IMG/VR virus record: IMGVR_UViG_3300025299_000102
Length of the DNA: 64,000 bases
Source of the DNA: a virus
Lineage: Duplodnaviria; Heunggongvirae; Uroviricota; Caudoviricetes
Direction: 5' to 3' (one strand)
This document shows, piece after piece, positions 4,075-40,598 of this stretch. The position numbers and the translations under genes are program-made. The notes under the pieces were generated by a model. It was not told the DNA's origin, made no database searches, and saw only the letters and a list, made by a program, of their open reading frames with translations. Position 1 is the stretch's first letter; every line of letters begins with the position of its first letter.

Positions 4075-5793
4075 ATGAACAAACAACTTACCATTTCCCT
4101 GGGGCAAATCAACCCAACCATTGGCGACTTCAAGGGCAACATCACTCTGATGCGCAATGCGGCCTTTGAGGCGCAAGCAGCTGAGGCTGACATGGTGGTG
4201 TTCCCAGAGCTATCCCTCACAGGCTATAGCCCAAGCGACCTGCTGGACGACAACATGTTCCAGCAACGCCTCGAACAGGCTCAGTCCGCCCTCTATGAAG
4301 CGTCCAAGGCTACTCCTGACGTTTATTGGGTAGTCGGATTGCCTATTCGTCGCTCCGGCCGTGGCGGCCGGCCGTATTACAACGCGCTGCAGGTGCTTCT
4401 CAATGGTGAAGTGGTCCACACCCAGTACAAGCAGCTCCTACCTACGTATGGCGTGTTCGATGAGCGGCGCCATTTCGAGCCAGGCCCTGACGTTGGCAAG
4501 GTCTTGCGAATCCGAGGGGTGACTATCGGATGGTTGGTCTGCGAAGACGCATGGAACGACACTGGCCTGGATTACCCAGTCAATCCGTTCCAGCGGCTGG
4601 CCGACGCATCGCCGGACTTGGTCATTTCGATAAACGCAAGTCCAAGTCACAAAGGCAAGCGTCAAGTTCGCCATTCGGTGATTTCCAAGGCCTGCGCGCG
4701 GCATAAACTTCCACTGGTTTATGTCGCCCAGGTCGGCGGCCATGACCAGCTGGTTTTCGATGGCGCATCGTTCGCGGTAAATGCTACAGGGGAAGTCGTA
4801 TTCGAGGCCAAGCGTTTTGACTCGGATGTCCCTACCATTCGACTGGATGTCGAGAGCCAGGCCTTTATGTCCGAAACTGGCGAGAAGCTGCCCCCAGTGG
4901 CTGCGGAGGGGTTGCCTGTGATGGAGTTCTACCGGCAGCAGCTTGTACTGGGAATCCGCGACTATGCGCGCCGCTGTGGCTTCACCAAAGCCCTGCTTGG
5001 CATGTCGGGTGGTATCGACTCCGCGCTGACCCTGATGCTGGCGGTCGAAGCGCTCGGAGCCCCGAACGTCGTGGCCGTGACGATGCCGTCCACCTACTCG
5101 AGCGAAGGTAGCGTGCTCGATTCCGAGTTGATGTGTCAGAACCTGGGAGTGCAGCTCATTGAGCTACCTATCCAGGAGATGGTCGACCAGTCATGCAAAT
5201 CGTTCGAAGCCAATGTCGGGGAGGCTCCGCGTGGGCTGGCTCTTGAGAACCTGCAGGCACGCATCCGCGGCATGATGCTGATGACTTACTCGAACCAGTA
5301 CGGCCAATTGTTGCTCACGACCGGGAATAAGAGTGAGCTTTCGGTAGGGTTCTGCACGCTCGGCGGCGACGTGCTGGGAGGCTTGTGCGTGCCCGGTGAC
5401 CTTTATAAAACGGAGGTAGTAGCGCTGTGCGAGCACATTAACGCTTCATACGGTCGAGAAGTAATTCCCGTGGCCATTATTACGAAGCCGCCGTCGGCCG
5501 AACTTTCACCAGGCCAGATGGACACCGACTCTTTGCCGCCATACCCAGTTCTGGATGAAATCCTGAAAGTGCACATTGAAGGCGACTTGCTCGATGTAGA
5601 AGAGCGCCGGCACGCCAATGCCGTGGTTCGCGGCCTAATGGCCGGACACAAAGGCCTCGACACAGTTGTCAAGGTGCGTCAGCTGATTGCACGCAGCGAG
5701 TACAAGCGCCGCCAGGCGCCACCCGTAATTCGAGTTCGTGCTCGCGCATTCGGTGTCGGGCGTCAAGTACCAATTACTGCTAAGCAATACTAA
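4075..5793 (+). CDS. nadE: glutamine-dependent NAD+ synthetase (CN-hydrolase domain + NAD synthase domain)
   Basis: N-terminal nitrilase-type domain (VVFPEL...; C in GWLVCED) and C-terminal PP-loop GMSGGIDSALTL, 572 aa typical of two-domain NadE. Confidence 0.85.
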   Translation: MNKQLTISLGQINPTIGDFKGNITLMRNAAFEAQAAEADMVVFPELSLTGYSPSDLLDDNMFQQRLEQAQSALYEASKATPDVYWVVGLPIRRSGRGGRPYYNALQVLLNGEVVHTQYKQLLPTYGVFDERRHFEPGPDVGKVLRIRGVTIGWLVCEDAWNDTGLDYPVNPFQRLADASPDLVISINASPSHKGKRQVRHSVISKACARHKLPLVYVAQVGGHDQLVFDGASFAVNATGEVVFEAKRFDSDVPTIRLDVESQAFMSETGEKLPPVAAEGLPVMEFYRQQLVLGIRDYARRCGFTKALLGMSGGIDSALTLMLAVEALGAPNVVAVTMPSTYSSEGSVLDSELMCQNLGVQLIELPIQEMVDQSCKSFEANVGEAPRGLALENLQARIRGMMLMTYSNQYGQLLLTTGNKSELSVGFCTLGGDVLGGLCVPGDLYKTEVVALCEHINASYGREVIPVAIITKPPSAELSPGQMDTDSLPPYPVLDEILKVHIEGDLLDVEERRHANAVVRGLMAGHKGLDTVVKVRQLIARSEYKRRQAPPVIRVRARAFGVGRQVPITAKQY

Positions 5794-5836
5794 ACTGATT
5801 GACCGATGATTAAATACTTGCCAAAGTGTTGCTTTG

Positions 5837-5845
5837 TGGTATAAT
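5837..5845 (+). promoter_or_regulatory. extended -10 promoter (TGgTATAAT)
   Basis: TGnTATAAT ending 9 nt before the predicted 5' end of the tRNA-like RNA. Confidence 0.4.
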
Positions 5846-5854
5846 GCAATTCAT

Positions 5855-5982
5855 CTCCCTGTGGCTGAGCTGGCTTAAGGCGGCGGACTCTAAACCCGAT
5901 GCGAAACCTGCTCTTGGCTACGGACTTTTGTTCGATGCAAGACTGGCGTTTGCCGTGGGTTCGAATCCCACCAGGGGGACCA
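5855..5982 (+). ncRNA. oversized tRNA-like RNA (7-bp acceptor stem, D-arm-like hairpin, canonical T-arm GTGGGTTCGAATCCCAC, discriminator A, CCA); 128 nt
   Basis: 3' end GTGGG-TTCGAAT-CCCAC-CAGGGGG-A-CCA; 5' CTCCCTG pairs with CAGGGGG (one G.U); GCTG/CGGC D-stem with GG loop; middle ~70 nt does not fold as a normal anticodon arm. Confidence 0.5.
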
Positions 5983-6030
5983 ATTTAAAGTAGTTGCCAT
6001 CATGAATGGGCAGCTATTTGCAGCAAAACA

Positions 6031-6056
6031 AACCCGCATTTTGCGGGTTTTCTTTT
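6031..6056 (+). terminator. intrinsic terminator
   Basis: AAACCCGCAttttGCGGGTTTT + T-tract ~50 nt after the tRNA-like 3' end. Confidence 0.6.
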
Positions 6057-8222: not shown

Positions 8223-9125
8223 ATGAAGAAAATAGCAAGTCATGGCGGTTCCTTTCACGCTGATGATGCGCTTGGCATTTCGATGCTGCGCGCGCTGTAT
8301 CCTGATGCGGAAGTTGTTCGCACACGCGACCCGGCCGTTTGGGCTACCTGTGACGCGCTAGTTGACGTCGGCGGTGAACATGACCCCGTGCGCAACCGGT
8401 TCGACCATCACCAGAAGGGCTTTGCGGAGCGTCGCGCAAACGGTATTCCGTACGCAGGCTCAGGCCTGGTCTGGGCTGCCTATGGCGCCCGCTATGTATT
8501 GACCATGGTCGATTGGGCGTCGTACGCCGAAGCTGAAATCATTGCGCGGATGGTCGATGAAAAGCTCATCCAACATGCTGATGCCGTCGACAGCGGTATC
8601 AACGTTCCAGGGTCAATGCACTTCAACCTGTCGGGCATCATCGACACCCTGAACAGCCGCTGGTATGAGCCAGAAGGCGATGATGACCTGCTTTTCGCAG
8701 AAGCAGTTGAACTTGCGGGCACAGTTCTTCGGAACCTGGTGCGTGCGGTCGCAGCTGAATATGCAGCAGCAGACCGAGTTCGTAATGCACAGCAGCTTGC
8801 CGGCGGCCGTATTATCGTGCTTGACGCAGCTCGCCTGCCATACGACCCTGTTGTGGTCAATGAGCTGCCGGACTGCCTCTTCGTGGTGTACCCTGAATCG
8901 ACAGGCAAACAGCACCAGGTCCGAGTTGTTCCGAAGGTTCTGGGTAAGTACGAAGCTCGCGCAGACCTTCCTGAAGCATGGGCCGGCCTTCGTGACGATG
9001 CACTGGCCGCGGCTACCGGTGTCAAGGACGCGGTCTTCTGCCATAACGGTCGCTTCATCTGTGGTGCCGGGTCGAAAGCCGGCGCAATTCGCATGGCTGA
9101 GCTTGCGCTTGAGGCTCTGGAGTAA
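8223..9125 (+). CDS. MYG1/UPF0160 family metal-dependent hydrolase (paralog 1)
   Basis: N-terminal HGGSFHADDALG and DHHQ motifs typical of MYG1/GAMM1 exonuclease family; AAGGAGGA RBS; TTGACG-17-TATACT promoter upstream. Confidence 0.65.
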   Translation: MKKIASHGGSFHADDALGISMLRALYPDAEVVRTRDPAVWATCDALVDVGGEHDPVRNRFDHHQKGFAERRANGIPYAGSGLVWAAYGARYVLTMVDWASYAEAEIIARMVDEKLIQHADAVDSGINVPGSMHFNLSGIIDTLNSRWYEPEGDDDLLFAEAVELAGTVLRNLVRAVAAEYAAADRVRNAQQLAGGRIIVLDAARLPYDPVVVNELPDCLFVVYPESTGKQHQVRVVPKVLGKYEARADLPEAWAGLRDDALAAATGVKDAVFCHNGRFICGAGSKAGAIRMAELALEALE

Positions 9126-9134
9126 GCAATCTCT

Positions 9135-9166
9135 CGCCCACCATTTTTTGGTGGGCGTTTTTTCTT
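9135..9166 (+). terminator. intrinsic terminator
   Basis: CGCCCACCattttttgGTGGGCG + T-tract. Confidence 0.6.
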
Positions 9167-9222
9167 CCGCTAAAGAAAAACCTGCACACTAGGTGCAGGC
9201 TGAGAATAATGCTTTGGTGCGT

Positions 9223-9762
9223 TCAATCCGCGAGCGCATCCAGGTGCGCTTGATGCGCATAGCAGCTATTGCAAATCGGCACCCATTCGCGAGTGTCGTT
9301 GGCTTGTTGGCCACAATAAGCGCACTTACACAGTGTTTTAGTCAGCAGAACTCTCACGCAAACATGATGTCGCGCTGCTGCAGGATAGCCGCTCTTCTTA
9401 CAGATGGGGCAATCTCCAGGTGTATCCAACAAGCCGGCTTTGTCTAAGCTCAAATTTGCAGCTTCTACAAAATCCTTGTCCGATTTGAATTCGCCCCAGG
9501 GTTCCAAGATACCTGCCACGGTAAATAGCTCACTGGGCGTCAACTTCAGATTTGGCATCAGTGTATGCACACGATTTGCCAAAGCGAACAGTTCTGGCGT
9601 CAAAGTTACGTTTCCGGCGGCCGGGCCCGGTGTCCATGTCTTTACCAGTTGGTCAGCCTGCCGGTAAATTTGTCCAACTTTCGTGGGGGACAGCCCCATC
9701 TCGTTGGCCAATTCTTCCATGGTGTTCAAGCTAGGCATCAATACAGTTTCATTAGGGTTCAT
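9223..9762 (-). CDS. putative transcription regulator (HTH + C-terminal C4 zinc finger)
   Basis: Sigma region-4-like helix-turn-helix TMEELANEMGLSPTKVGQIYRQA; C-terminal CPICKK...CKCAYCG...CNSC; GGAGA RBS before ATG 9762. Confidence 0.45.
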   Translation of the reverse strand: MNPNETVLMPSLNTMEELANEMGLSPTKVGQIYRQADQLVKTWTPGPAAGNVTLTPELFALANRVHTLMPNLKLTPSELFTVAGILEPWGEFKSDKDFVEAANLSLDKAGLLDTPGDCPICKKSGYPAAARHHVCVRVLLTKTLCKCAYCGQQANDTREWVPICNSCYAHQAHLDALAD

Positions 9763-9810
9763 GCGTTTCTCCAAAGTTAGTTTCCTCAATCCTGTATAGC
9801 CCGACTTAAG

Positions 9811-9850
9811 TAACTTGCTTGAAGTTACGTTAATCGCTATTTCGTGGTAT
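9811..9850 (+). promoter_or_regulatory. promoter with operator-like inverted repeat (GTAACTT-n5-AAGTTAC) and TATACT -10
   Basis: Inverted repeat overlaps -35 position; -10 GGTATACT at ~9843. Confidence 0.4.
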
Positions 9851-9878
9851 ACTATCGGCTCCACAGGAGAATTTCCAC

Positions 9879-11105
9879 ATGACCGCCATTCAGCAGGAAC
9901 TGCGTCGCCTTGAAGGTTTGACGCCAGAGGCTATCGCCACGCACTTTTTCGACAACTACGGCATCATCGCGCAGCTGCATCATCACGGCGCGCTATGGCT
10001 GTTTGATTATGACCAACTGGCGGCACACAAGCACCGCATGACCGACATGGTTATGGAGTCCCGGGGGCTAATCCTATGCGCAGAAACCCTGGACATTGTG
10101 CGCCGGCCGTTTGCTCGCTTCTTCAACATCGGCGAGGCGCCAGCCTACGAAAGCGACATCGACTATGAGAAGCTGGAAGCTCTGGAAAAAGTGGACGGCA
10201 GCCTGGTCACGCTCTACTACAACAAGGTCACCAATCATTGGCATTTCGGCACCCGTGGCACTCCGTTTGCGGAAGGCCGCAACCGTCATACGGGAAAGGT
10301 AATGTCCGACCTAATTTCGCGCGCAGCTGGCTTGGTCCACAAGCCAGGTACTTCGGAGTTTGACAAGAACCTGCGCAGCGCCGGAATTCTTGACCCAGAC
10401 GTGACTTATCTGTTTGAGTTCATCGGTCCGGACAATCCCCATGTTACTCGCTACACTGAATCCGAGCTTGTGCTTCTCGGCGCTCGGCGGCTTAATGGCA
10501 TTGAATATACGCCGCAAGAGGTCAACTTCTTGTTCAACCTGTTTACGGCGGTTGGTTGGCGAGTCCGCATGCCAAAGCGCTATCCAATCCCGCTGGCGCT
10601 TGGCGGTCTGGCACGCTCGCTTCAGGTTGAGGCCATCAAGAACTGGGTCGCCTCGGCGCCTGAGTTCAAAGGCTTACATGAAGGTGTTGTATGCATCAAC
10701 GCATCCACCGGAAAACGCCTGAAGGTAAAGACCCCGCTGTACTGCGCTGTTCATCTCCAGGGAGATGAAGTGGAAGGACTCAGCATCAGTAAGGCTCGCG
10801 TTGCAGACCTCATTGTCAATGGGGATGCCGATGAGTTCTGTTTGTACTTCCCGGCGTTGGCGCCAAAGGTGCAAGCCATGGCTGGCCAGGTACAGGCCTT
10901 TATCGAAGGTTTGGCTCCCATTTGGGAAGAAGTCAAGGATATCGCGGACCAGAAGGATTTTGCCGTTGCTGTGCAAGCTAAAGCACCTGGTGCTGCATCG
11001 GCCATCTTCTTCCTTGCTCGCAAGACGGGCGTGACGCCCGCTCAGGCTTGGATGGGAATGCCTTTGAACAAAAAGGCATCGCTGGCCGAGAAGCTGGTGG
11101 GGTAA
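9879..11105 (+). CDS. ATP-dependent RNA ligase, T4 Rnl1-like
   Basis: Nucleotidyltransferase motif I EKVDGSLVTLYY (cf. T4 Rnl1 KEDGSLV); size 408 aa; further KxxG motifs. Confidence 0.7.
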   Translation: MTAIQQELRRLEGLTPEAIATHFFDNYGIIAQLHHHGALWLFDYDQLAAHKHRMTDMVMESRGLILCAETLDIVRRPFARFFNIGEAPAYESDIDYEKLEALEKVDGSLVTLYYNKVTNHWHFGTRGTPFAEGRNRHTGKVMSDLISRAAGLVHKPGTSEFDKNLRSAGILDPDVTYLFEFIGPDNPHVTRYTESELVLLGARRLNGIEYTPQEVNFLFNLFTAVGWRVRMPKRYPIPLALGGLARSLQVEAIKNWVASAPEFKGLHEGVVCINASTGKRLKVKTPLYCAVHLQGDEVEGLSISKARVADLIVNGDADEFCLYFPALAPKVQAMAGQVQAFIEGLAPIWEEVKDIADQKDFAVAVQAKAPGAASAIFFLARKTGVTPAQAWMGMPLNKKASLAEKLVG

Positions 11106-11111
11106 TCACCC

Positions 11112-11306
11112 ATGTACATCTTGGCCTACATTCTGATGCTTTTCCACTTCATTGCCGGATTGGCGTGTGGGGTGTACACCTGGGTAACGGGGAAGGATAT
11201 TCCTCACTTCGGCTACATGTCACTCTACACTTCGATTGCGTTGACCCTGGCGTACCTGGTTGTTCTTGAGGTACGCCGCTTTCGGAAAGCACGCCAGGCT
11301 GAATAG
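11112..11306 (+). CDS. small membrane protein
   Basis: 64 aa, two hydrophobic helices; start directly after ligase stop. Confidence 0.4.
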   Translation: MYILAYILMLFHFIAGLACGVYTWVTGKDIPHFGYMSLYTSIALTLAYLVVLEVRRFRKARQAE

Positions 11307-11333
11307 GCGCGTGCCTCAGGAAAGGGCTTCGAT

Positions 11334-11633
11334 TTGAATGGCTTGATTTCCCTATGCCCCGTAGAGATGCTTCTGGTGGTATCACAGTTGCTGCCCATTG
11401 TTCTTTGCCTAAAATTCTGTAAGGCGAACGGGAACAGCGTAGGGTCAAAGGTAGCTGCGGGTGCTTTTTTTATGCTTCAAGGGAGCTGGATTCTGCTTGG
11501 CTTGCTTGCGGCCGAAGACTGCGCCGTCCGTGCCATCATTGTGCACGCGATTCTCGTACCAGCTGCGCTTGTAGGCGTGTATATCGCCTGGCGACAGGGC
11601 AGGCCCTGCCAGCCGGTCAAAAAGCAGGACTAA
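11334..11633 (+). CDS. small membrane protein
   Basis: 99 aa, 3 predicted TM helices. Confidence 0.4.
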   Translation: MNGLISLCPVEMLLVVSQLLPIVLCLKFCKANGNSVGSKVAAGAFFMLQGSWILLGLLAAEDCAVRAIIVHAILVPAALVGVYIAWRQGRPCQPVKKQD

Positions 11634-11666
11634 ATGAAAAGCCGGAGTGCCCCGGCCTTTTCTCTG

Positions 11667-11945
11667 TCACGTCAGTTTGCGGGTATGCTCTTTACCGGCA
11701 CGCGCCTTGTGGCGCCGTTCGTGGCGAGTCTTGTGGTTCAGTCGGCTTTCCTGGGTGTAATCCAGTTTGCGCGCTGCGCCCCGTTCGTCTGGGTCTTCCT
11801 GCCGATGAGCATTGGGTTGTACAGGGTGGGCCAGCAGGTCTTCCAGTTGCCCCATCGACCGCGGCGCCGGGCTCACCCGGGCCTGGCTCACACCAGACAA
11901 GGCCAACAGTGCGGCAAGCAGGGCTGCGTTACGAATGCGTTTCAT
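11667..11945 (-). CDS. small secreted basic protein
   Basis: Signal peptide MKRIRNAALLAALLALSGVSQA; His/Arg/Lys-rich C-terminus. Confidence 0.4.
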   Translation of the reverse strand: MKRIRNAALLAALLALSGVSQARVSPAPRSMGQLEDLLAHPVQPNAHRQEDPDERGAARKLDYTQESRLNHKTRHERRHKARAGKEHTRKLT

Positions 11946-12039
11946 TGCACCTCCTTTTGGTGATGGAAGGTCATATTCTTCCACTCCTGTATAGGGCCGA
12001 ACGCCTTCGCAGTTAACGATTTAAGTGAACTATAAGTGT

Positions 12040-12110
12040 TAACACTTGACAGCATAGTAAACTTTGCTATACTTGCCAACATCTGATAACCGTGAGCTAT
12101 ACTCAGCATC
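12040..12110 (+). promoter_or_regulatory. tandem sigma70-like promoters (TTGACA-17-TATACT and TTGCCA-n-TATACT)
   Basis: Two consensus-like promoters 30 nt apart reading toward 12261. Confidence 0.45.
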
Positions 12111-12260
12111 ATGAAACTGTAGATTTCCTGCCCGCTCCGCTGCACCGCTAGCAACCCAGCTTGGGTTAGCGCACGTGGTCCGCCGCTACTCCATCGATGG
12201 CCTTTGGCCAAAGTACCTGCCATTTCTGGCAATCCTTAACTATCGACTGGAGTAACGCAA

Positions 12261-12626
12261 ATGACCACTATCAACAATTCCATCCTGACTTCCGACGAAC
12301 GCCGTGTTCTGTTCGGCACCTGGCGCTCGCTGTACGCATCTGGCAATGCCGTTGCGTTGGACTTCCTCATCTACGCACTGCTGCGCGGCAAAGACCCGCG
12401 GGCTGGCTTCACGCCAATCAGCAACAGCAATAAGCTGAACAACGGGTCTACCGCGGACCAGTGCTATAAGACCACTCTCCTGGCCGCGTCGAACATGGCC
12501 GGCCACCGCATGTCGGAAAAGGTGCGCGCATTGTTCCCTGACATGAGCGCAGAACGCAATGCCGAGGTAGTTGGCGCCATCTGGCAGGCCGCTACCAACC
12601 TGTACTACGGCAAGAAGGAGGCTTGA
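12261..12626 (+). CDS. hypothetical protein
   Basis: ORF with GGAG-type RBS; long structured 5'UTR. Confidence 0.5.
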   Translation: MTTINNSILTSDERRVLFGTWRSLYASGNAVALDFLIYALLRGKDPRAGFTPISNSNKLNNGSTADQCYKTTLLAASNMAGHRMSEKVRALFPDMSAERNAEVVGAIWQAATNLYYGKKEA

Positions 12627-12627
12627 T

Positions 12628-12966
12628 ATGAAGCCGTACACCTACGTTCTGATTCGCACGGATATCCCACTGGAACAGCAGATGGTGCAGGCCTGTCACG
12701 CTGCACTGGAGGCTGGTCACGCCTTTTCAGCGCCGGCTCAGACTTCTAGCCTCATCGTATGCACCGTGCCAAATCGCGAAGCCCTCCTCGAGGCGCGCGC
12801 ACGCCTGGCGCGTCACGGCATTCAAAGCGAGATGTTCTTCGAGCCTTCCTGGGAGATGGGGCACTCCGCCTTGGGAACCGAGGCTATCACCAATCGTAAG
12901 CAGCGCTTCGTTATGTCGAAGTATCCCCTCTGGCGCGCGCCAGTTTCCGTTCCTGCTGCAGCTTGA
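12628..12966 (+). CDS. peptidyl-tRNA hydrolase, PTH2 family
   Basis: N-terminal YVLIRTDIPL...QACHAAL resembles the PTH2 signature (VVRTDL...GKiaAQcsHAa); ~112 aa; RBS AAGGAGG. Confidence 0.6.
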   Translation: MKPYTYVLIRTDIPLEQQMVQACHAALEAGHAFSAPAQTSSLIVCTVPNREALLEARARLARHGIQSEMFFEPSWEMGHSALGTEAITNRKQRFVMSKYPLWRAPVSVPAAA

Positions 12967-12977
12967 AAGGACTGAAC

Positions 12978-13514
12978 ATGCTCACCAAACACGAACTTGA
13001 CGCTCAACTCGCATCCCTGGCTGCGCTTCAGACGAAAACCCAAACTATGGCCTTCACTGATGAAGAGAAGGAGCAGCTGGCCGAACTGTTACGGGAGGCC
13101 CGGGCTACTGAGCTGCGCGAATGGCGCCGTATGCGAGTCCGGCTTGCTGTCGACGTGCTGTTCCCAACCTGGCGCGGCGGCCGTATCGAGAAGCCAGGGC
13201 ACCCAGCATGGCATGAAAAATCCTGGTGGTGGAACGGCGCGCGCGTGAAAAGCGAGGAGGTGACTGAGGCCGGCGATGTCATCGTACGATTGTCGTCCTA
13301 TGTCGGGGGAGGGGAGACCGACGAAATTGACGAGTTGACCTTAAAGCGCGCCTGGCTCGAAGCCGACGACATGCCTGCGGTCATTCAGTCCTATATGCTG
13401 GCCGAGGCCGCGCGCTTGGAAGCGGAGCGACTGGCCGGCGAACGAGCACGTGCTCAAGCTGAATTAGCGGCTGCGCAGGCAAAACTCGCCAGCCTTGCGA
13501 ATGGAGCTGAGTGA
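12978..13514 (+). CDS. hypothetical protein, C-terminal coiled-coil
   Basis: ATG 12978 with AAAGGA RBS; ORF-track TTG at 12963 overlaps previous stop. Confidence 0.45.
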   Translation: MLTKHELDAQLASLAALQTKTQTMAFTDEEKEQLAELLREARATELREWRRMRVRLAVDVLFPTWRGGRIEKPGHPAWHEKSWWWNGARVKSEEVTEAGDVIVRLSSYVGGGETDEIDELTLKRAWLEADDMPAVIQSYMLAEAARLEAERLAGERARAQAELAAAQAKLASLANGAE

Positions 13515-13567
13515 TGACCAACCTGTAGATTGCTGTACCGCAGAATATTGATGCGCTGGAGCAAAGC

Positions 13568-14107
13568 ATGCGGGGATGCATGCAGTTCCGGTCACAAAAT
13601 GTGCTTGAACATGGTGATGCCGTGCTGGCCAAGTATCGCGAACTTAGGGCTAACGCTCGCGAGGGGCGCTTCCCCGCAGGTTGGCGCCAGCCTAAATGGT
13701 GGACACCTGAGCTTGCAAAACGCTTGGTCGAACTTCAACCAGGAGACGAAGTGATGTCAAATTACTTACGGTACCATGATTGCGGTAAGCCGATTTGTCG
13801 CAGCCAGGATGAAACTGGTAGGCAGCATTTCCCCAATCACGCCGAGGTGTCGGCCAAGCTATGGCAGGGCCTGGGCGGCCATCCGGATGAAGCCTGGCTC
13901 ATGTCCAACGACATGCTGCTGCACATCGGCTCTGCGGCCGACTGTGACGTGTTGAAAGGGCATCGGTTGGCGCCGGCGTTGATTTTCGCATCGCTGGCTG
14001 AAGTGCACTCCAATGCCGAGATGTTCGGCGGCATGGATACTGACAGTTTCAAGGCTAAGGCGAAGCAGCTCGAGCGCCGCGCCTCACAGCTGGTTAAGGA
14101 GGCCTAA
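13568..14107 (+). CDS. putative HD-domain phosphohydrolase
   Basis: H...HD...H...D spacing (LEHGD, YHDCGKP, NHAEVS, DCD) compatible with HD superfamily; tentative. Confidence 0.35.
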   Translation: MRGCMQFRSQNVLEHGDAVLAKYRELRANAREGRFPAGWRQPKWWTPELAKRLVELQPGDEVMSNYLRYHDCGKPICRSQDETGRQHFPNHAEVSAKLWQGLGGHPDEAWLMSNDMLLHIGSAADCDVLKGHRLAPALIFASLAEVHSNAEMFGGMDTDSFKAKAKQLERRASQLVKEA

Positions 14108-14152
14108 GTGCGCAATAAGTTGCTCAGTTTGTCCTGATGCGCAACTTATTGC

Positions 14153-14521
14153 TCAAAAAGGGTCGTCGGCGTCGCAACCTCGGCCCACTCCAAGTGCCTT
14201 TGCCACGTCCGTAGCAATCTCATCTCCGACAGGGCTAGGCGCGTTGGCCTCCTCGGGGGTGAGCGTAATGTCAGGACGCTGGGCTTTGAAGAGATGCACC
14301 AGTGGGCGACGTACCAACCCACAATAGGTTCTGCCATCTTCATGCTCGAGTGCTATGCAAGGACCTACGTGGCAATTCAACAATTCCTCTGCGAGCCGGC
14401 ACGGCTGCACGGTGCAGCAGTAGCCACAGCCGTTGCATGCCTGGCCGAGGGCTGGCTTGGGGAGGGGAAGGATTGCTATCGGAGCGAAAGTCATAGGTGA
14501 ACAAATGGACGAATGGCTCAA
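14153..14521 (-). CDS. cysteine-rich metal-binding protein (CxxCxxCC, UPF0153/YkgJ-like)
   Basis: CNGCGYCCT motif plus additional Cys/His; start uncertain (14521 or 14494). Confidence 0.4.
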   Translation of the reverse strand: MSHSSICSPMTFAPIAILPLPKPALGQACNGCGYCCTVQPCRLAEELLNCHVGPCIALEHEDGRTYCGLVRRPLVHLFKAQRPDITLTPEEANAPSPVGDEIATDVAKALGVGRGCDADDPF

Positions 14522-14764
14522 TCTTAAGCCGGCGCGGTCTGCCCGGCAAGTTTTAGGCCCCGTTGCTGGTCAAAATCGGCCAAAAGTGAGCGACAAGTGC
14601 CGTTGTTGCTCATGGATTGACGTCAAACTGTTTGGTGCTCAAAAATCGACAAATTTGGTGCTCAAAGCGGAAAGCTTCTTCAAAACAACGAGCCAAAAAG
14701 CTCACGTCTAGATGTGTTTTATGGTATACTGTCATTAATTAGAAGAACTTTCGAAAGACATCCT

Positions 14765-15661
14765 ATGTTAGTAATCGCCGTCAGCAGCCGTGCACTGTTC
14801 AACCTGGAAGATGGTCACACCATTTATCAAAACGAGGGTTGGGCTGCCTTCGATGCATACATGCAAAAGCATGAGAAGCGAGCGCTGCGCCCCGGCGTGG
14901 CCTTCCCGCTTATCAAGAAGATGCTGGCGCTGAACACCCCAGGCAAGCGCGACCGCGTCGAAGTCATGCTGCTGTCGTCCAATACGCTGGAGGCCGGCGC
15001 GCGTGTAATGAACTCGGTCCGCCACTACGAGCTGGACATCGAGAGTGCGTTCTTCACCTCCGGAGCTGACCGGTTCCGTATCGCCAAGGCGGGCAACGTT
15101 ACACTGTTCCTGTCGACGAACCCAAGTGAAGTGCGAAAAGCACTAGCGGCCGGTATTGCCAGCGCCAGCGTTATTCCGTCTTCGCGCTTCAATGAAAGTG
15201 CCGGCGACAAGGATAGCCTGGTTATCGCATTCGACGGCGACTCGGTGCTGTTTGACGATTCCGCAGAGAAAGTGCACCAGGCTGAAGGCCTGCCCGCCTT
15301 CCAGGAAAGCGAACGCCGTCAGGCCAAGATTCCGCTCGGTGACGGTCCCTTCAAGCCCGTCTTGCAGGCACTGCACGACATTCAGCAAAGCTTTGACTCG
15401 CGCGATGCCAATCGCCCGTTGCGTGTCGCACTGGTGACCGCCCGCGGCGTGCCTGCTTACGACCGCGTTTTGCGCACTTTCCGCACCTGGGGCGTCCATG
15501 TTGATGAATCCTTCTTCTGCGGCGGTAAAGCCAAAGGCCCGTTTCTCGATGCAATGAACGCTGACCTGTTCTTCGACGACGGCATGCATAACGTCGAATC
15601 CGCGATGCAGTTCGTCCCAGCTTGTCACGTGCCACACGGCATCGTGGGCTCGACGCAATAA
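14765..15661 (+). CDS. HAD-superfamily 5'-nucleotidase-like protein
   Basis: HAD motif I IAFDGDSVLFDDS, LVTARG, terminal FFDDG; upstream ATG 14714 lies inside the TATACT -10 and was rejected. Confidence 0.55.
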   Translation: MLVIAVSSRALFNLEDGHTIYQNEGWAAFDAYMQKHEKRALRPGVAFPLIKKMLALNTPGKRDRVEVMLLSSNTLEAGARVMNSVRHYELDIESAFFTSGADRFRIAKAGNVTLFLSTNPSEVRKALAAGIASASVIPSSRFNESAGDKDSLVIAFDGDSVLFDDSAEKVHQAEGLPAFQESERRQAKIPLGDGPFKPVLQALHDIQQSFDSRDANRPLRVALVTARGVPAYDRVLRTFRTWGVHVDESFFCGGKAKGPFLDAMNADLFFDDGMHNVESAMQFVPACHVPHGIVGSTQ

Positions 15662-15670
15662 GGACTCCCA

Positions 15671-16152
15671 TGGCTATCAAAAACCTCACTGAAGTTCCAC
15701 GTGACCAGCTGGTAGGCAAGTTCATCTGCGAGCCGTCGGTATACGGCGCCCCGTACGGATATCCTGCTGTCATCGAAAAGACTACGGCCGCGCGCTTGAC
15801 ATTCCGCCGCCTCCCGCGGGGCGCGTGGGACAATACACAAAAAGAATGGCAGGTGAGCCCTTCTCTTGTCGCGCCGGCTTCCGATAACGGGGCTGGCGAC
15901 CCGTTCGGGGAGCTGTTTCCAAAGGAAACTAGCCAGCAGTGCAATCATTCCAGCGTAAAACTGGTGTGTGACACTGCCCATGAGGCTATCGGGCTGTACC
16001 ATGCGGCACTTCAGGCCACCAAGGCGATTGAAAAATACAAAAAAGACATGCTGGCCAAACTGGACGCCGATGCGAAGGCCGGCTGGCTGCCTGTTCCATT
16101 CTACCTGGTGCAGGCAGCTCAGGAAAATCCACACACGCCCGGTTCCGAATAA
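15671..16152 (+). CDS. hypothetical protein (paralog A)
   Basis: Shares CDTAhEAIgLyhaalqat motif with next gene. Confidence 0.45.
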
Positions 16153-16457
16153 TGGCTGTTCATGAATTTTCTGCGGTCCCGCTGACTAAACTTCGCGGGA
16201 TGTTCAGCTGTGTCCCCACCAAGGTATTCCCTCAACAGACCGAACTTGAGTATGGACTCCCTGTGCTGATTGAGGTCGCGACACCGAATGTCATTCACTA
16301 TAGCCTCATCAGCGGCACGGCCGACGGCTTCACTCGCTGCTCTAACCGCCTCTTCAGCGAGCGAGCCATCTTCAAGGTAGCGTGTGATACCGCTCAAGAA
16401 GCGATAGAGCTCTGCCGCCAGCATGCCCCGCGCAGTGCCCGTGCTGCGCGTCGTTAA
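16152..16457 (+). CDS. hypothetical protein (paralog B)
   Basis: TAATG overlap with previous gene; shared VACDTAQEAIELCRQHA motif. Confidence 0.45.
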   Translation: MAVHEFSAVPLTKLRGMFSCVPTKVFPQQTELEYGLPVLIEVATPNVIHYSLISGTADGFTRCSNRLFSERAIFKVACDTAQEAIELCRQHAPRSARAARR

Positions 16458-16479
16458 TCAGGCATAATCCATAGTTTTC

Positions 16480-17268
16480 ATGAAGAAAAAGCTCCTCCTC
16501 ATCGACGGCCTAAACATCTTACGCCGCTGCTATGAAGCTAACCCTGCAGGCGATACCGTAGAGAAGGCTGAGGCCGCAGCGAGTTCAGCCCTACAGTCGA
16601 TGCGGCGTGCTGTACGAGCTCACGAGCCAACCCACTGCCTGGTCATTTTCGACGCCGGCGGCCCAACGTGGCGCCATGCTATTTATCCGGACTATAAAGC
16701 ACACCGCAAGCCGATGGCCCCGGTTTTGGCCGCCGAGCTGGAGGGCATGAAGGAACGGATGTCCACGCAGGGCTGGGCGCTAATGGCGCATCCGGGCGAG
16801 GAGGCTGATGACAGCATTTACGGCGTTGCGCAAGCCGCGCGCTTTGAAGATGCGGAGGTTGTCGTCGCTTCAACAGACAAGGACCTCGTCCGCCTGGTTG
16901 CGATGGGCGTCCAGGTGTACAACCATTTCGACCGGGAGTGGCGCGATGCCGCATGGTGCGAGAAGCGCTTTGGGGTTCATCCTGAACTGCTAACAGATTT
17001 CCTTGCTCTGATGGGCGACACCACCGACAACATCCCCGGGGTTGACGGTATTGGCGCCAAAACGGCTGCCAAACTGCTCAACGAACATGGCGGTTTGGCT
17101 CAGGTGCTTGCAGCCGCTGCGGCCGGTAGCGTCAAAGGAGTGGTCGGCGAGCGCCTGGTAAGCCAGCGAGACCGTGCACTGATTTCCCTGGAACTGGCTT
17201 CTTTCCGCAGTACGTTCTCATTTCTGGACCTGTGGTGGGACACCTTGGAGCGACCAGCTATCGCCTAA
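16480..17268 (+). CDS. 5'-3' exonuclease / flap endonuclease (FEN family)
   Basis: LLIDGLNILRR, GEEADD, TTDNIPGV(D)GIG motifs of Pol I 5' nuclease/T5 D15/T4 RNase H family. Confidence 0.8.
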   Translation: MKKKLLLIDGLNILRRCYEANPAGDTVEKAEAAASSALQSMRRAVRAHEPTHCLVIFDAGGPTWRHAIYPDYKAHRKPMAPVLAAELEGMKERMSTQGWALMAHPGEEADDSIYGVAQAARFEDAEVVVASTDKDLVRLVAMGVQVYNHFDREWRDAAWCEKRFGVHPELLTDFLALMGDTTDNIPGVDGIGAKTAAKLLNEHGGLAQVLAAAAAGSVKGVVGERLVSQRDRALISLELASFRSTFSFLDLWWDTLERPAIA

Positions 17269-17523: not shown

Positions 17524-17532
17524 CTCTCTCCA

Positions 17533-17560
17533 ACGCCTCCTCTGTGAGGCGTTTTCATTT
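17533..17560. terminator. bidirectional intrinsic terminator
   Basis: AACGCCTCctctgtGAGGCGTTTT. Confidence 0.6.
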
Positions 17561-29544: not shown

Positions 29545-30468
29545 ATGATTGACTCCCTCAGCATCAAGCCGCAGGCTGAAAGTGTCCTGCCTTGGGCCGC
29601 GAAGCTTGACTATTTCAAGGCCCACCCTGTGACCGAATTCAAGCCGGGTTTGAACATCCTATTCGGACTCAACGGGTCGGGCAAAAGCACCGTACTGCAA
29701 CTACTGGCCACGACCTTGGCTGCTGCCCAAGGCGGCACGTCGGTGGTGACGTCATCCTGGATGAGGGAAGTGCTGGGCTTCGATGATAAAGGTCATAAGG
29801 TTCCGTGCGAGGTCGTTCACGATGGGCAGCCGGTGATGTTCTTTGATGCTCGGGCACAGGAAGGCCTGATTGGCGGCTCGTTCGATGACGACTTCTTCAA
29901 TCTGGGAGTTGCTAACTCGATGGCCAAGGGCTCGACCGGCCAACTTAACCTGCGGCGCCTCGACAGGCTGCTCAGTGTACTGGTGGAAAAGCGCGCCAAT
30001 CCCGAATCTGGCAAGACGCAAAAATCGCCTGCGGATAAACCGAAACGAGTCGGCCGGACTGCCAAGAGCTTTGAGCGCAAAGCTTCAAACCAAAGTCTTG
30101 TTCCAGAAGGATTTCCAGAGGAAATCGTATGGAAGGTGTCACGTGGTCATGTAAATGACCACTGGGCCAATCGCTTCGCATTGATTGAAGAACTGCTGGC
30201 GCCTAAGCGCGCATCCGGACCAAAGACCCTAATTTTCGACGAACCTGAATCGGGCTTCTCGCTGCCCTGGCAAGCTGGCTTGTGGGCAAACATCTTTTCG
30301 AGAATCGACCCTGCCAAGTTCCAGGTCATCGTAGCCACTCATAGCCCATTCGCATTGGGTATCCCAGGCGCGAACTACATCGAAATGAGTCCAGGCTACT
30401 TGGCCGAAAGCATTGCAGCAACGCTGACGCTGTTTGAGCGTCCAATTTACCATTCGGAGACCAAATGA
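29545..30468 (+). CDS. minimal ABC/SMC-type ATPase (AAA_21-like)
   Basis: Walker A GLNGSGKST, Walker B LIFDEPESG, C-terminal VIVATHSP(F) motif typical of RecF/SMC-like and OLD/Abi-type ATPases. Confidence 0.65.
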   Translation: MIDSLSIKPQAESVLPWAAKLDYFKAHPVTEFKPGLNILFGLNGSGKSTVLQLLATTLAAAQGGTSVVTSSWMREVLGFDDKGHKVPCEVVHDGQPVMFFDARAQEGLIGGSFDDDFFNLGVANSMAKGSTGQLNLRRLDRLLSVLVEKRANPESGKTQKSPADKPKRVGRTAKSFERKASNQSLVPEGFPEEIVWKVSRGHVNDHWANRFALIEELLAPKRASGPKTLIFDEPESGFSLPWQAGLWANIFSRIDPAKFQVIVATHSPFALGIPGANYIEMSPGYLAESIAATLTLFERPIYHSETK

Positions 30469-31310
30469 AGGCCCCTATCCGCTTGCCGCATGATGCAACC
30501 AGTGAGGCGGAAGTTCGCCAATATTTCGACACCCGCGCGCGCCAGTTGTTGCATGAAGATTTCCGATGGTCCGGGACCCTGAACTGGGCCTCTGGGTTCG
30601 AGGGGGACGTGTATCAAACCACATTCATTGAGCTCGGCAAAAACCCCTTTGCCTCCTACTTTATCCTGCCGCATGCTCGCGGCAAGGGCATCCTGCGCAG
30701 ACTGGTTGAGCGCGGCACGCCTATCGTCACTGTGCCTGACTGCAATATCGAAGAAGCGCTCAAGCACGTCGGCGCGAACTACCGCCTGGCCGGCCGGCTG
30801 ACCGAGACCGTTGAGTACCGGCTCATTCAGGCCGACTATGGCAGTAAACGTGCCCAGCGCAGCCAGGTGTTCCTCATGAACCACATCGACGAAGGTTTGG
30901 CCGTAATGGCTTGGGCCGGCGCGTCTGAGCGAGCCATGCGTGCGTTCTGCCTGCACCCGCTGGTTCAGGATGATGCGAGTCTGTCCCTGAACTTCGAGCG
31001 AGTCGCCCTGGAGGTGACTGCGCAACCTGACGGTGCTGCAGTTCTGGCGCTTGCGATGGAGTATCGCTCCGTGGCCAATGAATACCTGGCTCACTGCGTT
31101 ATGCGGCCAAATGGCATTCGGTTGAGCCCAGTGCAGGACGTGAATCAGATGCTTGTCGGCGACAAGGTTCAGAACTTCAAAGACTTCCAGCAGTACCACG
31201 CAACGACACATGAAAACCGCGACCGCCTGACCGAGTATTTCCAGCAGTGGGTCACCGCCCTGGGCGTCGCGGATAAGTATGAAACCCTGAAATCATGGCT
31301 TCCGGCCTGA
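30465..31310 (+). CDS. hypothetical protein, translationally coupled partner of the ATPase
   Basis: ATGA start/stop overlap with upstream ATPase; 281 aa; no known motif recognised. Confidence 0.5.
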   Translation: MKAPIRLPHDATSEAEVRQYFDTRARQLLHEDFRWSGTLNWASGFEGDVYQTTFIELGKNPFASYFILPHARGKGILRRLVERGTPIVTVPDCNIEEALKHVGANYRLAGRLTETVEYRLIQADYGSKRAQRSQVFLMNHIDEGLAVMAWAGASERAMRAFCLHPLVQDDASLSLNFERVALEVTAQPDGAAVLALAMEYRSVANEYLAHCVMRPNGIRLSPVQDVNQMLVGDKVQNFKDFQQYHATTHENRDRLTEYFQQWVTALGVADKYETLKSWLPA

Positions 31311-40489: not shown

Positions 40490-40598
40490 TTGCTTTTCTG
40501 ACTTAATTCCCCCAGGTTTTTGCCTGGGGGTTTTTTCCTTTTCAAGGGAAAGAAATTTGGAGGGTTTTCCTATACTGAATACCCTCACTTTTGGAGTA

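Follow-up and report, generated by a model that had tools for sequence, protein, structure and literature searches.

The region 9879-17268 of the window (the whole 64-kb stretch analysed here, which belongs to a giant mobile element of ~570 kb and 56% GC) is predicted from its sequence to be not one cluster but a series of four or more transcription units, interrupted by genes on the minus strand. One of these units, comprising o121, a PTH2-like gene, o183 and an HD-like gene, is a conserved module shared with jumbo phages and giant elements. We consider it slightly more probable than its opposite that RNA- and DNA-handling are the tasks of separate units, in which the module would clean the tRNA 3' end, an Rnl1 ligase lacking Pnk would seal 5'-P/3'-OH breaks, and a 5'-nucleotidase and a flap endonuclease would belong to the DNA side.

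Genes and predicted transcription units

A sequence-only reading of this DNA had placed genes for an Rnl1 ligase, PTH2, HD, 5'-nucleotidase and FEN within this region, and NadE, a ThrRS core and a tRNA-like RNA elsewhere in the window. All were found at the positions given below, and the five genes of the region lie on the + strand.

4075-5793: NadE
5855..5982, + strand: tRNA-like gene with anticodon CUA, amber-suppressor type (Rfam tRNA model, 36.9 bits)
8223..9125, + strand: MYG1/UPF0160 protein, DHH-type 3'-5' RNA exonuclease family (PF03690, 2.4e-75; PDB MYG1 exonuclease 24ah, 2.7e-41)
9879..11105, + strand: Rnl1-family ATP-dependent RNA ligase, 408 aa (PF09511, phrog_562)
11112..11633, + strand: two small hydrophobic ORFs, tm64 and tm99, of 64 and 99 aa (ORF list; gene calls in L001)
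12261..12626, + strand: o121, first gene of the module (promoter scan; homologues in L005, L007 and L054)
12628..12966, + strand: PTH2-fold protein of a divergent subfamily (AF2 model and Foldseek, family profile matches)
12963..13514, + strand: o183, "middle" gene of the module (poorly conserved; position between the PTH2-like and HD-like genes constant)
13568..14107, + strand: HD-superfamily phosphohydrolase, 179 aa (phrog_14850, fold matches)
14714..15661, + strand: cN-I type 5'-nucleotidase, first gene of the FEN unit (PF06189)
15622..16457, + strand: two small ORFs, o176 and o101, of 176 and 101 aa, between nucleotidase and FEN (ORF list)
16480..17268, + strand: 5'-3' exonuclease/flap endonuclease (FEN), DNA replication and repair (PF02739, PF01367, phrog_107)
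18549..19925, + strand: DUF2828/DUF7788/vWA protein (phrog_850, annotated "RNA-binding protein")
21262..22527, + strand: ThrRS catalytic and anticodon-binding core (matches E. coli ThrRS residues 233-610)

The units are MYG1; Rnl1-tm64-tm99; o121-PTH2-o183-HD; and 5'-nucleotidase-o176-o101-FEN. In a promoter and terminator scan, most of their boundaries carried consensus-type promoter and/or terminator matches. For example, MYG1 is apparently monocistronic with a terminator at 9135-9157, a terminator-like hairpin (11641-11656) follows the tm64/tm99 pair, and a promoter (TTGACA-16-TATACT, 12046-12073, 11/12 sigma-70-type match) lies upstream of o121, the first of four closely packed module genes. 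These matches and the intervening minus-strand genes argue against the single RNA end-healing cluster that had been proposed for the region.

Of the ~77 ORFs in the window, about 10 concern RNA or translation, namely NadE, the tRNA-like gene, two MYG1 copies, Rnl1, PTH2-like, HD-like, TROVE-like, ThrRS and PIN-PhoH. The ThrRS core lacks the N-terminal part of full-length ThrRS. The product of 18549..19925 may be Ro/TROVE-like, as judged from its vWA architecture; its gene is conserved after FEN in L007, and phage ME3 has a homologue 6 kb upstream of its module.

The PTH2-like/HD-like module and its tRNA neighbourhood

The assignment of the second module gene to PTH2 holds at the level of the fold and through profile matches of its family. 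Its AF2 model had a pLDDT of 94.8, and the best 13 Foldseek PDB matches were all solved Pth2 structures (TM 0.58-0.76, E 3e-6 to 3e-3), followed by the uncharacterised Atu0240 at rank 14 and Pth2 again at rank 15. Of 34 family members, 20 matched PF01981 with E<0.01, the lowest value being 8.4e-6; the protein of the window itself scored 20.5 bits, under the cut-off of 23. The family, which comprises 1081 50%-identity clusters at E<=1e-10, has the invariant residues Q21, H24, E72-P73, G78 and R93. In Sulfolobus Pth2, catalysis reportedly depends on the Lys before the Q..HA motif and on the Asp in which the central strand ends. The Asp position aligns with the invariant E72, and the position of the canonical catalytic Lys is Q17 here and Q or H across the family. 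Because this Lys is missing and the Pfam score is below the cut-off, the protein may not be a peptidyl-tRNA hydrolase.

The HD assignment likewise stands on fold and metal ligands, and the protein of the window gave no match to PF01966, which was matched by 7 of 37 relatives (best 8.1e-6). The protein matches phrog_14850 at 5.8e-46, and its metal-ligand set H..HD..H..H..D (H15, H70, D71, H87, H91 and D115) was invariant in 37 sequences. It adopts an HD fold, for which the HD-type domain of a tRNA nucleotidyltransferase is the nearest solved counterpart; the best structural matches were a tRNA nucleotidyltransferase and a glycyl-tRNA synthetase beta subunit. No significant sequence match was obtained with the small alarmone hydrolase (SAH) families.

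The PTH2-like gene accompanied the HD-like gene, either adjacent or fused, in all 13 loci examined. Module loci were found in phages RsoM2USA, GAP32, ME3, Arash, pT24, XacN1 and RAS14, in the 635 kb uncultured phage LR745206 and in the giant-element contigs L005, L007, L054 and L056. Fusions occur in both orders, HD+PTH2 (P0145, P0147, P0180, XacN1 ORF364 and RAS14) and PTH2+HD (P0380, P0383 and pT24 BPT24_235), and accessory genes are also fused, o121 to PTH2 in P0284 and PTH2 to the middle gene in P0360, where the latter is of an alternative type with an RsoM2USA_92-like Cys motif. None of the 10 phage loci had an Rnl1 gene within 10 kb of the module. This, together with the constant pairing in all 13 loci, indicates that the conserved partner of HD is the PTH2-like protein and not Rnl1.

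Suppressor tRNA genes (CUA or UCA) lie 0.2-2.6 kb from the module in L007, L054, L056, ME3, Arash, GAP32 and pT24, and 6-13 kb from it in the window, L005 and RsoM2USA; none lies within 10 kb in XacN1, RAS14 or LR745206. In Arash, the CUA tRNA is the closest to the module among 21 tRNAs. This proximity, assessed by locus counts, is in part due to the tendency of jumbo-phage translation genes to cluster in general. The tRNA-like gene of the window, which was not detected by ARAGORN, encodes its own CCA end, is enlarged by an insert of 50 nt where the variable loop lies, and has a promoter-like site at 5818-5845 and a terminator-like hairpin at 6030-6050; its tRNA(CUA) orthologues in L005 and L007 are of normal length.

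We propose that the module returns the 3' end of tRNA to a clean CCA-OH. Its PTH2-fold subunit would act on A76 by hydrolysing a group bound there as an ester (peptidyl, N-acyl-aminoacyl or aminoacyl), and its HD subunit would free the A76 ribose of a phospho-ester (2',3'-cyclic phosphate, 2'/3'-phosphate or pyrophosphate). HD-type alarmone hydrolases have been described that reverse toxSAS pyrophosphorylation of the tRNA CCA end (bioRxiv 10.1101/2021.04.30.441581). The cleaned tRNA could then be recharged after attack by a toxin or defence system, and the suppressor tRNA(CUA/UCA) that recurs nearby may be the substrate that the module prefers, or may be regulated together with it. A stronger form of this idea, which we regard as improbable, is that the module is a dedicated system for the co-encoded suppressor tRNA (CUA/UCA), that by controlling the charging or 3'-end state of this tRNA it might turn stop-codon read-through on or off, and that this system is common to jumbo phages and to the 500-640 kb elements in cultured Burkholderia/Paraburkholderia. 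If so, a defined enzymatic partner would be at hand for the suppressor tRNAs that have long gone unexplained in jumbo phages with the standard code, XacN1 among them.

Instead of acting on tRNA, the module might degrade an alarmone or a small-molecule immune signal, for example (p)ppGpp/(pp)pApp, an ADP-ribose derivative or cyclic oligonucleotides. We consider this very unlikely, since the best structural matches of the HD-like protein are enzymes of tRNA, its obligate partner has the fold of a tRNA-ester enzyme, tRNA genes recur beside the module, and PADLOC returned no hits.

The Rnl1 ligase, the nucleotidase/FEN unit and the carrier element

The ligase had been called a member of the Rnl1 family, and profiles and motifs bear this out (PF09511, 44.1 bits with a cut-off of 28.3; phrog_562, 5.5e-44); these Rnl1-type matches rule out a relative of DNA ligases or capping enzymes. 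The protein carries EKVDGS and matches the T4 Rnl1 structure 2c5u at 3e-05 with the motif register in agreement. Nucleotidyltransferase motifs I (KxDGS), III, IV (EGxV) and V (KxK), the Rnl1-specific upstream Arg and the K/R-F-F-N motif are all intact, and K104/D106/G107/S108, E180, E268-G269, K282, K284, R62 and R80-F81-F82-N83 were invariant in 21 homologues. The score against TIGR02308, the T4 RnlA equivalog model, was 57.9 bits with a cut-off of 242.25, which indicates the same family but not an equivalog. Towards the C-terminal tRNA-specificity domain known from such ligases, the PHROG alignment extends to residue 379, and the PDB and Pfam alignments end at residue 212.

No kinase had been evident to the sequence-only reading, and this proved correct for the 64 kb: the window contained no Walker-A kinase candidate, and tblastn with the Pnkp of phage phiPMW found no homologue in the window or in L001-L008. 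The same search located a Pnkp gene within 10 kb of Rnl1, mostly directly downstream, in at least 25 of the 41 viral loci with the closest Rnl1 relatives. Here, tm64 and tm99 adjoin the 3' side of Rnl1, at the position of Pnkp in the closest phage relatives. T4-style healing of 5'-OH ends is thus not available locally, and because 64 of ~570 kb are visible, Pnkp may exist elsewhere in the element. Unless such a kinase exists, Rnl1 would seal only 5'-P/3'-OH breaks, as from metal-dependent tRNases. MYG1, which is upstream of Rnl1 in all relatives, might trim the ends; since this adjacency occurs within one element family only, it may also be inherited synteny.

The 5'-nucleotidase and flap nuclease assignments are both sound. 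The former matches PF06189 with 352 bits (2e-105, profile positions 6-299 of 302) and carries the HAD-type motif DxDx(T/V) as FDGDSV at residue 174; the latter matches PF02739 (111 bits, 5.5e-32; N-terminal resolvase-like domain) and PF01367 (79.5 bits, 2.7e-22; C-terminal SAM-fold domain). The nucleotidase gene remains with FEN in L007/L008, and o176 and o101, which look like paralogues by eye, both match one L007 ORF (17282-17611). The nucleotidase looks like a gene co-transcribed with FEN for nucleotide and DNA metabolism, not for end-healing; the two enzymes would serve the nucleotide pool and DNA replication.

It had been suggested that an HD/HAD phosphatase pair substitutes for the kinase. 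In its full form, this is one kinase-less pathway in which the ends of broken tRNAs would be healed by HD and/or HAD and then sealed by Rnl1, with PTH2 removing stalled peptidyl-tRNA. All of the genes lie within 7.4 kb, the B. ubonensis and Paraburkholderia relatives keep their neighbourhood, Rnl1 has an undamaged active site, the HD protein is similar in fold to the HD-type domain found in tRNA nucleotidyltransferases, and PMC7824862 counts HD-like and HAD phosphatases among the RNA-repair enzymes of jumbo phages. However, the genes belong to separate predicted units, 5'-OH ends cannot be prepared by any kinase of the window, and the phage modules lack a nearby Rnl1. Relatives carry insertions of variable cargo (CBASS, a BglII-type restriction enzyme) that separate Rnl1 from the other genes. 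HD is coupled to the PTH2-like protein and HAD to FEN; PF06189 is a mononucleotidase family, near-absent from phages, and nothing ties it to RNA ends. We therefore regard a single pathway as improbable.

A somewhat less improbable alternative, although still an unlikely one, is that nothing is coupled beyond the PTH2-like/HD-like pair, the remainder being inherited backbone synteny, and that Rnl1 has another task, for example maintaining RNA in general or acting non-catalytically, as T4 Rnl1 does when tail fibres are attached. The Rnl1 neighbourhood is conserved only in close relatives (60-73% identity), unrelated Rnl1 loci have nothing in common but PhoH (4 loci) or TROVE-like (2 loci) genes, and the name of the Rnl1 PHROG family records the dual role in T4. 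However, the number of RNA- and translation-related ORFs in the window suggests a theme rather than chance, and in Paraburkholderia the module has moved to the opposite side of MYG1-Rnl1, yet still adjoins it. Separate RNA- and DNA-handling units remain our preferred reading.

The viral origin attributed to this DNA is in part doubtful. The carrier, of which 64 kb out of ~570 kb were read, may be a phage or a plasmid. Of phage-type features, the window yielded only an S49 protease and an rIIA-like N-terminus; it had no PHROG matches to structural genes and no megablast match to phages or plasmids. A search of IMG/VR gave no match for the element family, and MYG1 and PF06189 were near-absent among 50,697 phage records. 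The relatives of the element are stand-alone contigs of 500-640 kb and replicons in Burkholderia and Paraburkholderia genome assemblies.

Comparison with known systems

Iyer, Anantharaman, Krishnan, Burroughs and Aravind (2021, Viruses 13:63; PMC7824862) describe, in the sections consulted, a jumbo-phage counter-defence set of Rnl1/Rnl2/RtcB ligases, PTH2, ROT/TROVE, PIN-PhoH, HAD, HD and calcineurin phosphatases, NAD+ synthesis genes and tRNAs. Most of these genes are present in the window. The suggested role in counter-defence or translation support is plausible and agrees with these sections. Counter-defence, like the substrates and the direction of action, is inferred, whereas the identities of the genes, the folds, the conserved residues, the conservation and fusions of the module, its nearness to tRNA genes and the local lack of Pnkp are shown by the analysis. 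The claim that PTH2 is uncommon on phages is wrong for jumbo phages. The general theme of RNA repair and PTH2 in jumbo phages is thus already published, whereas the module and its suppressor-tRNA link appear undescribed: the same sections contain no description of a fused or adjacent PTH2-like/HD-like module, its accessory genes or a suppressor-tRNA neighbourhood. In contrast to the jumbo phages treated there, the carrier, an element of ~570 kb, occurs in bacterial assemblies as a replicon of its own, and its MYG1 and cN-I nucleotidase genes are of cellular type.

Compared with solved Pth2 (PF01981; 3erj, 1q7s, 1xty), the PTH2-like protein shares the fold, the Q..HA motif and an acidic residue ending the central strand; however, identity is 10-19%, the Lys position is altered, the loop after it is shorter, and the protein is always paired with or fused to HD. 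Unlike the HD domain of CCA-adding enzymes, the HD-like protein, whose activity is predicted, stands alone without a nucleotidyltransferase head, and it may likewise be compared with HD-type small alarmone hydrolases. The closest phage Rnl1 homologues (phiPMW type, ~31% identity) keep the classic Rnl1-Pnkp pair beside tRNA and NAD-salvage genes. With the Rnl1 (RnlA) and Pnkp repair system of T4, which counters PrrC, the element shares a PF09511 ligase that keeps motifs I/III/IV/V and the N-terminal Rnl1 residues, whereas in the window and related loci Pnkp is absent, two small membrane ORFs take its place, and MYG1 is the conserved neighbour.

Gene organization and the RNA ligase

The sequence-only reading had proposed that an Rnl1-type RNA ligase, a PTH2, an HD phosphohydrolase, a 5′-nucleotidase and a flap nuclease (FEN) form one RNA end-healing cluster with a counter-defence role. 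We located the following genes in this region.

Genes at 8223–17268 of the window
8223–9125, +, MYG1/UPF0160 (PF03690, 2.4e-75; PDB MYG1 exonuclease, 2.7e-41)
9879–11105, +, Rnl1-family RNA ligase (PF09511, 44.1 bits, cut-off 28.3; phrog_562, 5.5e-44)
11112–11633, +, two small hydrophobic ORFs
12261–12626, +, o121
12628–12966, +, PTH2-like
12963–13514, +, o183
13568–14107, +, HD-like
14714–15661, +, 5′-nucleotidase (PF06189, 2e-105)
15622–16457, +, two small ORFs, paralogue-like in appearance
16480–17268, +, 5′-3′ exonuclease/FEN (PF02739 and PF01367)

Minus-strand ORFs (9223–9864, 11667–12232 and 14153–14521) separate the gene groups, and o121, PTH2-like, o183 and HD-like are tightly packed. 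A consensus scan placed terminators immediately 3′ of MYG1 (9135–9157), 3′ of the small ORFs trailing Rnl1 (11641–11656) and ~260 nt 3′ of FEN (17532–17553), and a promoter with an 11/12 consensus match ahead of o121 (12046–12073). Given these intervening ORFs and promoter/terminator matches, the 'cluster', MYG1 included, amounts to at least four transcription units. The observation was confirmed, with all five genes present at 9879–17268, and its interpretation was borne out in part. The 5′-nucleotidase–FEN unit is best read as serving nucleotide and DNA metabolism. NadE (4075–5793), a tRNA-like RNA (5855–5979) and a ThrRS core with catalytic and anticodon-binding parts (21262–22527, +) were found elsewhere in the window, as had been noted. 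The ThrRS core (phrog_18916, 9e-114) matches residues 233–610 of E. coli ThrRS and thus lacks the N-terminal part. The toxSAS FaRel2 is described as selecting tRNA-Gly and tRNA-Thr, a choice that may or may not be relevant to this core.

Profile and motif checks agreed with the Rnl1-type assignment of the ligase. In an alignment of 21 homologues, K104 and D106–S108 (motif I lysine and DGS), E180, E268-G269, K282 and K284 were invariant, as were the upstream R62 and the R80-F81-F82-N83 motif, and the conserved residues lay in register with those of T4 Rnl1 (2c5u) in HMMER. An equivalog relationship with T4 RnlA was rejected (TIGR02308, 57.9 bits against a cut-off of 242). The nearest phage homologues (~31% identity) are of the phiPMW type with a classic Rnl1–Pnkp pair; in phiPMW, a tRNA cluster precedes RNA ligase, a small ORF, polynucleotide kinase, PRPP synthetase and Nampt, in that order. 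Using phiPMW Pnkp as a tblastn query, we found a homologue in at least 25 of 41 viral Rnl1 loci, mostly directly 3′ of Rnl1 and in a few loci 2–6 kb off or upstream. Neither the window nor any locus of its giant-element family gave a match in this search, and a Walker-A search for other kinase candidates found none within the 64-kb window.

MYG1 lies upstream of Rnl1 in every member of the giant-element family, with a variable gene between them. A general MYG1–Rnl1 pairing was rejected, as MYG1 was near Rnl1 in 0 of 41 viral loci and is nearly absent from phage records. Whereas Rnl1 is paired with Pnkp in T4 and in the phiPMW type, the window Rnl1 has a MYG1 neighbour instead. Without Pnkp, this ligase would be suited only to breaks with 5′-P/3′-OH ends, which would be expected from metal-dependent tRNases (PIN, Toprim, HNH), and MYG1 may trim RNA ends. 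A second MYG1 paralogue (39533–40489, +; PF03690, 3.3e-55) lies directly upstream of a PIN-PhoH protein, whose ORF (40338–41999, +) it overlaps; each MYG1 copy hence adjoins an RNA-acting enzyme.

The PTH2-like/HD-like module

The window PTH2-like protein scored 20.5 bits with Pfam PTH2 (PF01981), just under the cut-off of 23. The family profile matched a solved peptidyl-tRNA hydrolase (E = 0.006), and the top 13 Foldseek matches of the AF2 model (pLDDT 94.8) were solved Pth2 structures (TM 0.58–0.76). Q21, H24 and E72-P73 are kept across the family, which comprises 1081 clusters at 50% identity (E ≤ 1e-10). The catalytic Lys of Sulfolobus Pth2 precedes the Q..HA motif; in the PTH2-like family the aligned position is Q or H. 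The PTH2 assignment thus holds for the fold, and 20 of 34 relatives match PF01981, but with this Lys replaced and the window protein below the Pfam cut-off, it does not extend to enzymatic identity. In the deposited record of RsoM2USA, the PTH2-like gene (L009, 5060–5389) is without annotation, and in that of GAP32 (L010, 5645–6486) the PTH2-like and HD-like genes are broken into several short 'hypothetical protein' CDSs.

The window HD-like protein itself has no Pfam match. However, PF01966 is matched by 7 of 37 relatives, and the metal-ligand residues H15, H70-D71, H87, H91 and D115 are invariant in 37 sequences. The best structural matches were a tRNA nucleotidyltransferase, whose HD-type domain is the closest solved fold, and a glycyl-tRNA synthetase beta subunit; GppA/PPX, PgpH, HD-GYP, SpoT, MESH1 and small alarmone hydrolases ranked lower. 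Foldseek matches were weak. In the phage collection, nearly all members of this family come from genomes >180 kb.

A PTH2-like gene accompanied the HD-like gene in every HD-like locus examined.

Arrangement of PTH2-like and HD-like genes (P numbers, homologous proteins)
Adjacent: GAP32, ME3, Arash
One or two genes between: window, B. ubonensis (L005), Paraburkholderia (L007), RsoM2USA, L054, L056, LR745206
Fused HD+PTH2: XacN1 ORF364, RAS14, P0145/P0147/P0180
Fused PTH2+HD: pT24 BPT24_235, P0380, P0383

Accessory fusions also occur, namely o121+PTH2-like (P0284) and PTH2-like with an RsoM2USA_92-type Cys-motif domain (P0360). The order o121/PTH2-like/middle gene/HD-like recurs in L054, an unrelated giant-element contig, whose middle gene shows only a weak hint of similarity to o183; homology of o183 to the RsoM2USA middle gene was rejected (no BLASTP match). 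The Paraburkholderia module is placed 5′ of MYG1 instead of 3′ of Rnl1, and no Rnl1 was found within 10 kb of the module in ten phage loci. The idea that the HD/PTH2 proteins are known defence components was rejected (no PADLOC matches). On the best-supported interpretation, HD-like and PTH2-like proteins make up a single functional module, directed at tRNA, with up to two accessory proteins.

PTH2 had been called uncommon on a phage. However, the jumbo-phage counter-defence repertoire as outlined by Iyer et al. 2021 (PMC7824862) already includes it, together with RNA ligases, TROVE proteins, PIN-PhoH, HAD, HD and calcineurin phosphatases, NAD synthesis and tRNAs, so that neither the general idea nor 'PTH2 in phages' is new. 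In the portions of the literature covered by our search, we found no description of PTH2-like and HD-like genes as an obligate module, of the fusions and accessory genes of this module, or of suppressor tRNAs in its vicinity. Nor did we find one of an Rnl1 that lacks Pnkp and adjoins MYG1, or of the 0.5–0.64 Mb Burkholderia-associated carrier family.

The carrier element

The exact window Rnl1 protein was found on contigs of up to 572 kb, and homologues of 60–73% identity on 500–643 kb contigs labelled B. ubonensis, B. multivorans and Paraburkholderia, including L005 (LPBK01000018.1, 640 kb), L007 (CP120438.1, 619 kb) and L008 (CP123191.1, 611 kb), the latter two reported as whole contigs. Members of the family are found in metagenomes and, as contigs or replicons of their own, in Burkholderia/Paraburkholderia assemblies; the GC content is ~56%, termed low-GC (window, 52–59%). 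The region gave no megablast match in phage and plasmid collections (PLSDB copy included). The family was absent from IMG/VR and GTDB representatives, where exact-pattern/profile scans gave only Rnl1 genes of ~30% identity. Searching the literature for megaplasmids or jumbo phages of such size in Burkholderia returned nothing relevant (PMC5614643 is on pC3). Given its absence from the searched collections, the carrier family may merit its own description.

Phage-type genes (Rnl1, the HD/PTH2 module, phrog_850, phage-type ThrRS, rIIA-like N-terminus, PIN-PhoH) are found together with cellular-type ones (two MYG1, cN-I nucleotidase, histone-deacetylase-family protein, topoisomerase IA, AI-2E transporter, and an H-NS-family gene recorded in L001, an identical metagenome locus); MYG1 and PF06189 are almost missing from 50,697 phage records. 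When ~50 ORFs of the window were searched with PHROG and Pfam for virion, packaging, conjugation and partition genes, only the rIIA-like protein and an S49 protease were informative. On the evidence of these 64 kb, the carrier may be a giant phage, a phage-plasmid or a megaplasmid.

Further genes of the window
18549–19925, +, DUF2828/DUF7788/vWA protein (phrog_850 'RNA-binding protein', 1e-113)
29545–31310, +, ABC-type ATPase and 281-aa ORF (no family match)
43269–44345, −, TnpB/Cas12f-like gene
52747–55203, −, rIIA-like HATPase N-terminus (phrog_612, 2e-29)
55525–56700, +, WGR-domain ATP-dependent DNA ligase
56789–57754, +, S49 protease (phrog_53 'head maturation protease', 2e-41)

The variable slots of the family hold CBASS (SMODS+SLATT) or a BglII-type restriction enzyme. 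The ABC-type ATPase has partial AriA/PtuA (PARIS/Septu-type) matches (best 5e-13, profile ends only), and with the 281-aa ORF may constitute a two-gene defence system of the element. The DUF2828/DUF7788/vWA protein, possibly Ro/TROVE-like, is kept 3′ of FEN in Paraburkholderia; phage ME3 has a homologue 6 kb 5′ of the module, with a short CCA-adding-enzyme gene nearby.

Suppressor-type tRNAs and a proposed role at the tRNA 3′ end

The tRNA-like gene of the window (5855–5982, +, anticodon CUA) has an anticodon loop CUCUAAA, an encoded CCA, and its own promoter-like site (5818–5845) and terminator (6030–6050). It totals 125 nt, including 50 nt inserted at the variable loop, scored 36.9 bits with the tRNA model and was overlooked by ARAGORN. 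L001 carries an identical gene, and L005 and L007 carry normal 76–77-nt tRNA(CUA) genes. Counted by locus, suppressor-type tRNAs adjoin the module in most of those examined, including unrelated jumbo phages.

Suppressor-type tRNA genes at module loci (tRNA(CUA) unless stated)
B. ubonensis L005: normal length, 3′ of NadE as in the window; ~12.5 kb from module
Paraburkholderia L007: 4068–4144, 0.14 kb upstream of o121
L056: 6415–6485, between PTH2 and HD
ME3: 0.45 kb upstream of module
Arash: 0.46 kb downstream of module; nearest among 21 tRNAs
GAP32 (L010): 8774–8846, 2.3 kb from module
pT24: 2.6 kb from module
L054: tRNA(UCA), 4511–4586, 2.1 kb from module
RsoM2USA: 12 kb from module
Coordinates by locus number: L060 9157–9230, L059 10949–11023, L058 7021–7095, L063 32439–32516

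No suppressor tRNA was found within 10 kb of the module in XacN1, RAS14 or LR745206; XacN1 is nevertheless reported to encode two suppressor tRNAs (CUA) whose target is not known (PMC5852040). TAG recoding in the window was rejected: TAG terminates 6 of 77 ORFs, and read-through gives no rise in coding density. The link to the module gives a starting point for asking why giant phages with the standard code encode such tRNAs.

Attack on tRNA has become a prominent theme of phage–host conflict, and the toxins and defence systems involved include anticodon nucleases, PARIS, Septu/retron PtuAB, toxSAS (e.g. CapRel) and GNAT toxins; to our knowledge, few counter-measures have been described, namely T4 Rnl1/Pnkp and phage tRNAs. 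Pth detoxifies GNAT-acetylated aminoacyl-tRNA, and the HD domain of the E. coli CCA-enzyme has 2′,3′-cyclic phosphodiesterase and phosphatase activity. The Pth2-type ester-hydrolase and tRNA-nucleotidyltransferase-like HD folds, the intact HD metal site and the recurrent tRNA genes point to the tRNA acceptor end as a common substrate. Given these shared pointers, we propose that the PTH2-like and HD-like proteins would jointly strip ester- and phospho-ester-linked groups off A76, every substrate named for these enzymes being one that we infer. If this is true, a widespread, fusion-supported two-enzyme tRNA 3′-end module would represent a new class of counter-measure, and the in vitro test is easy. 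HD-type alarmone hydrolases are described as undoing CCA-end pyrophosphorylation by toxSAS, the CapRel subfamily included (10.1101/2021.04.30.441581), and this activity provides a precedent for the phospho-ester half of the proposed role.
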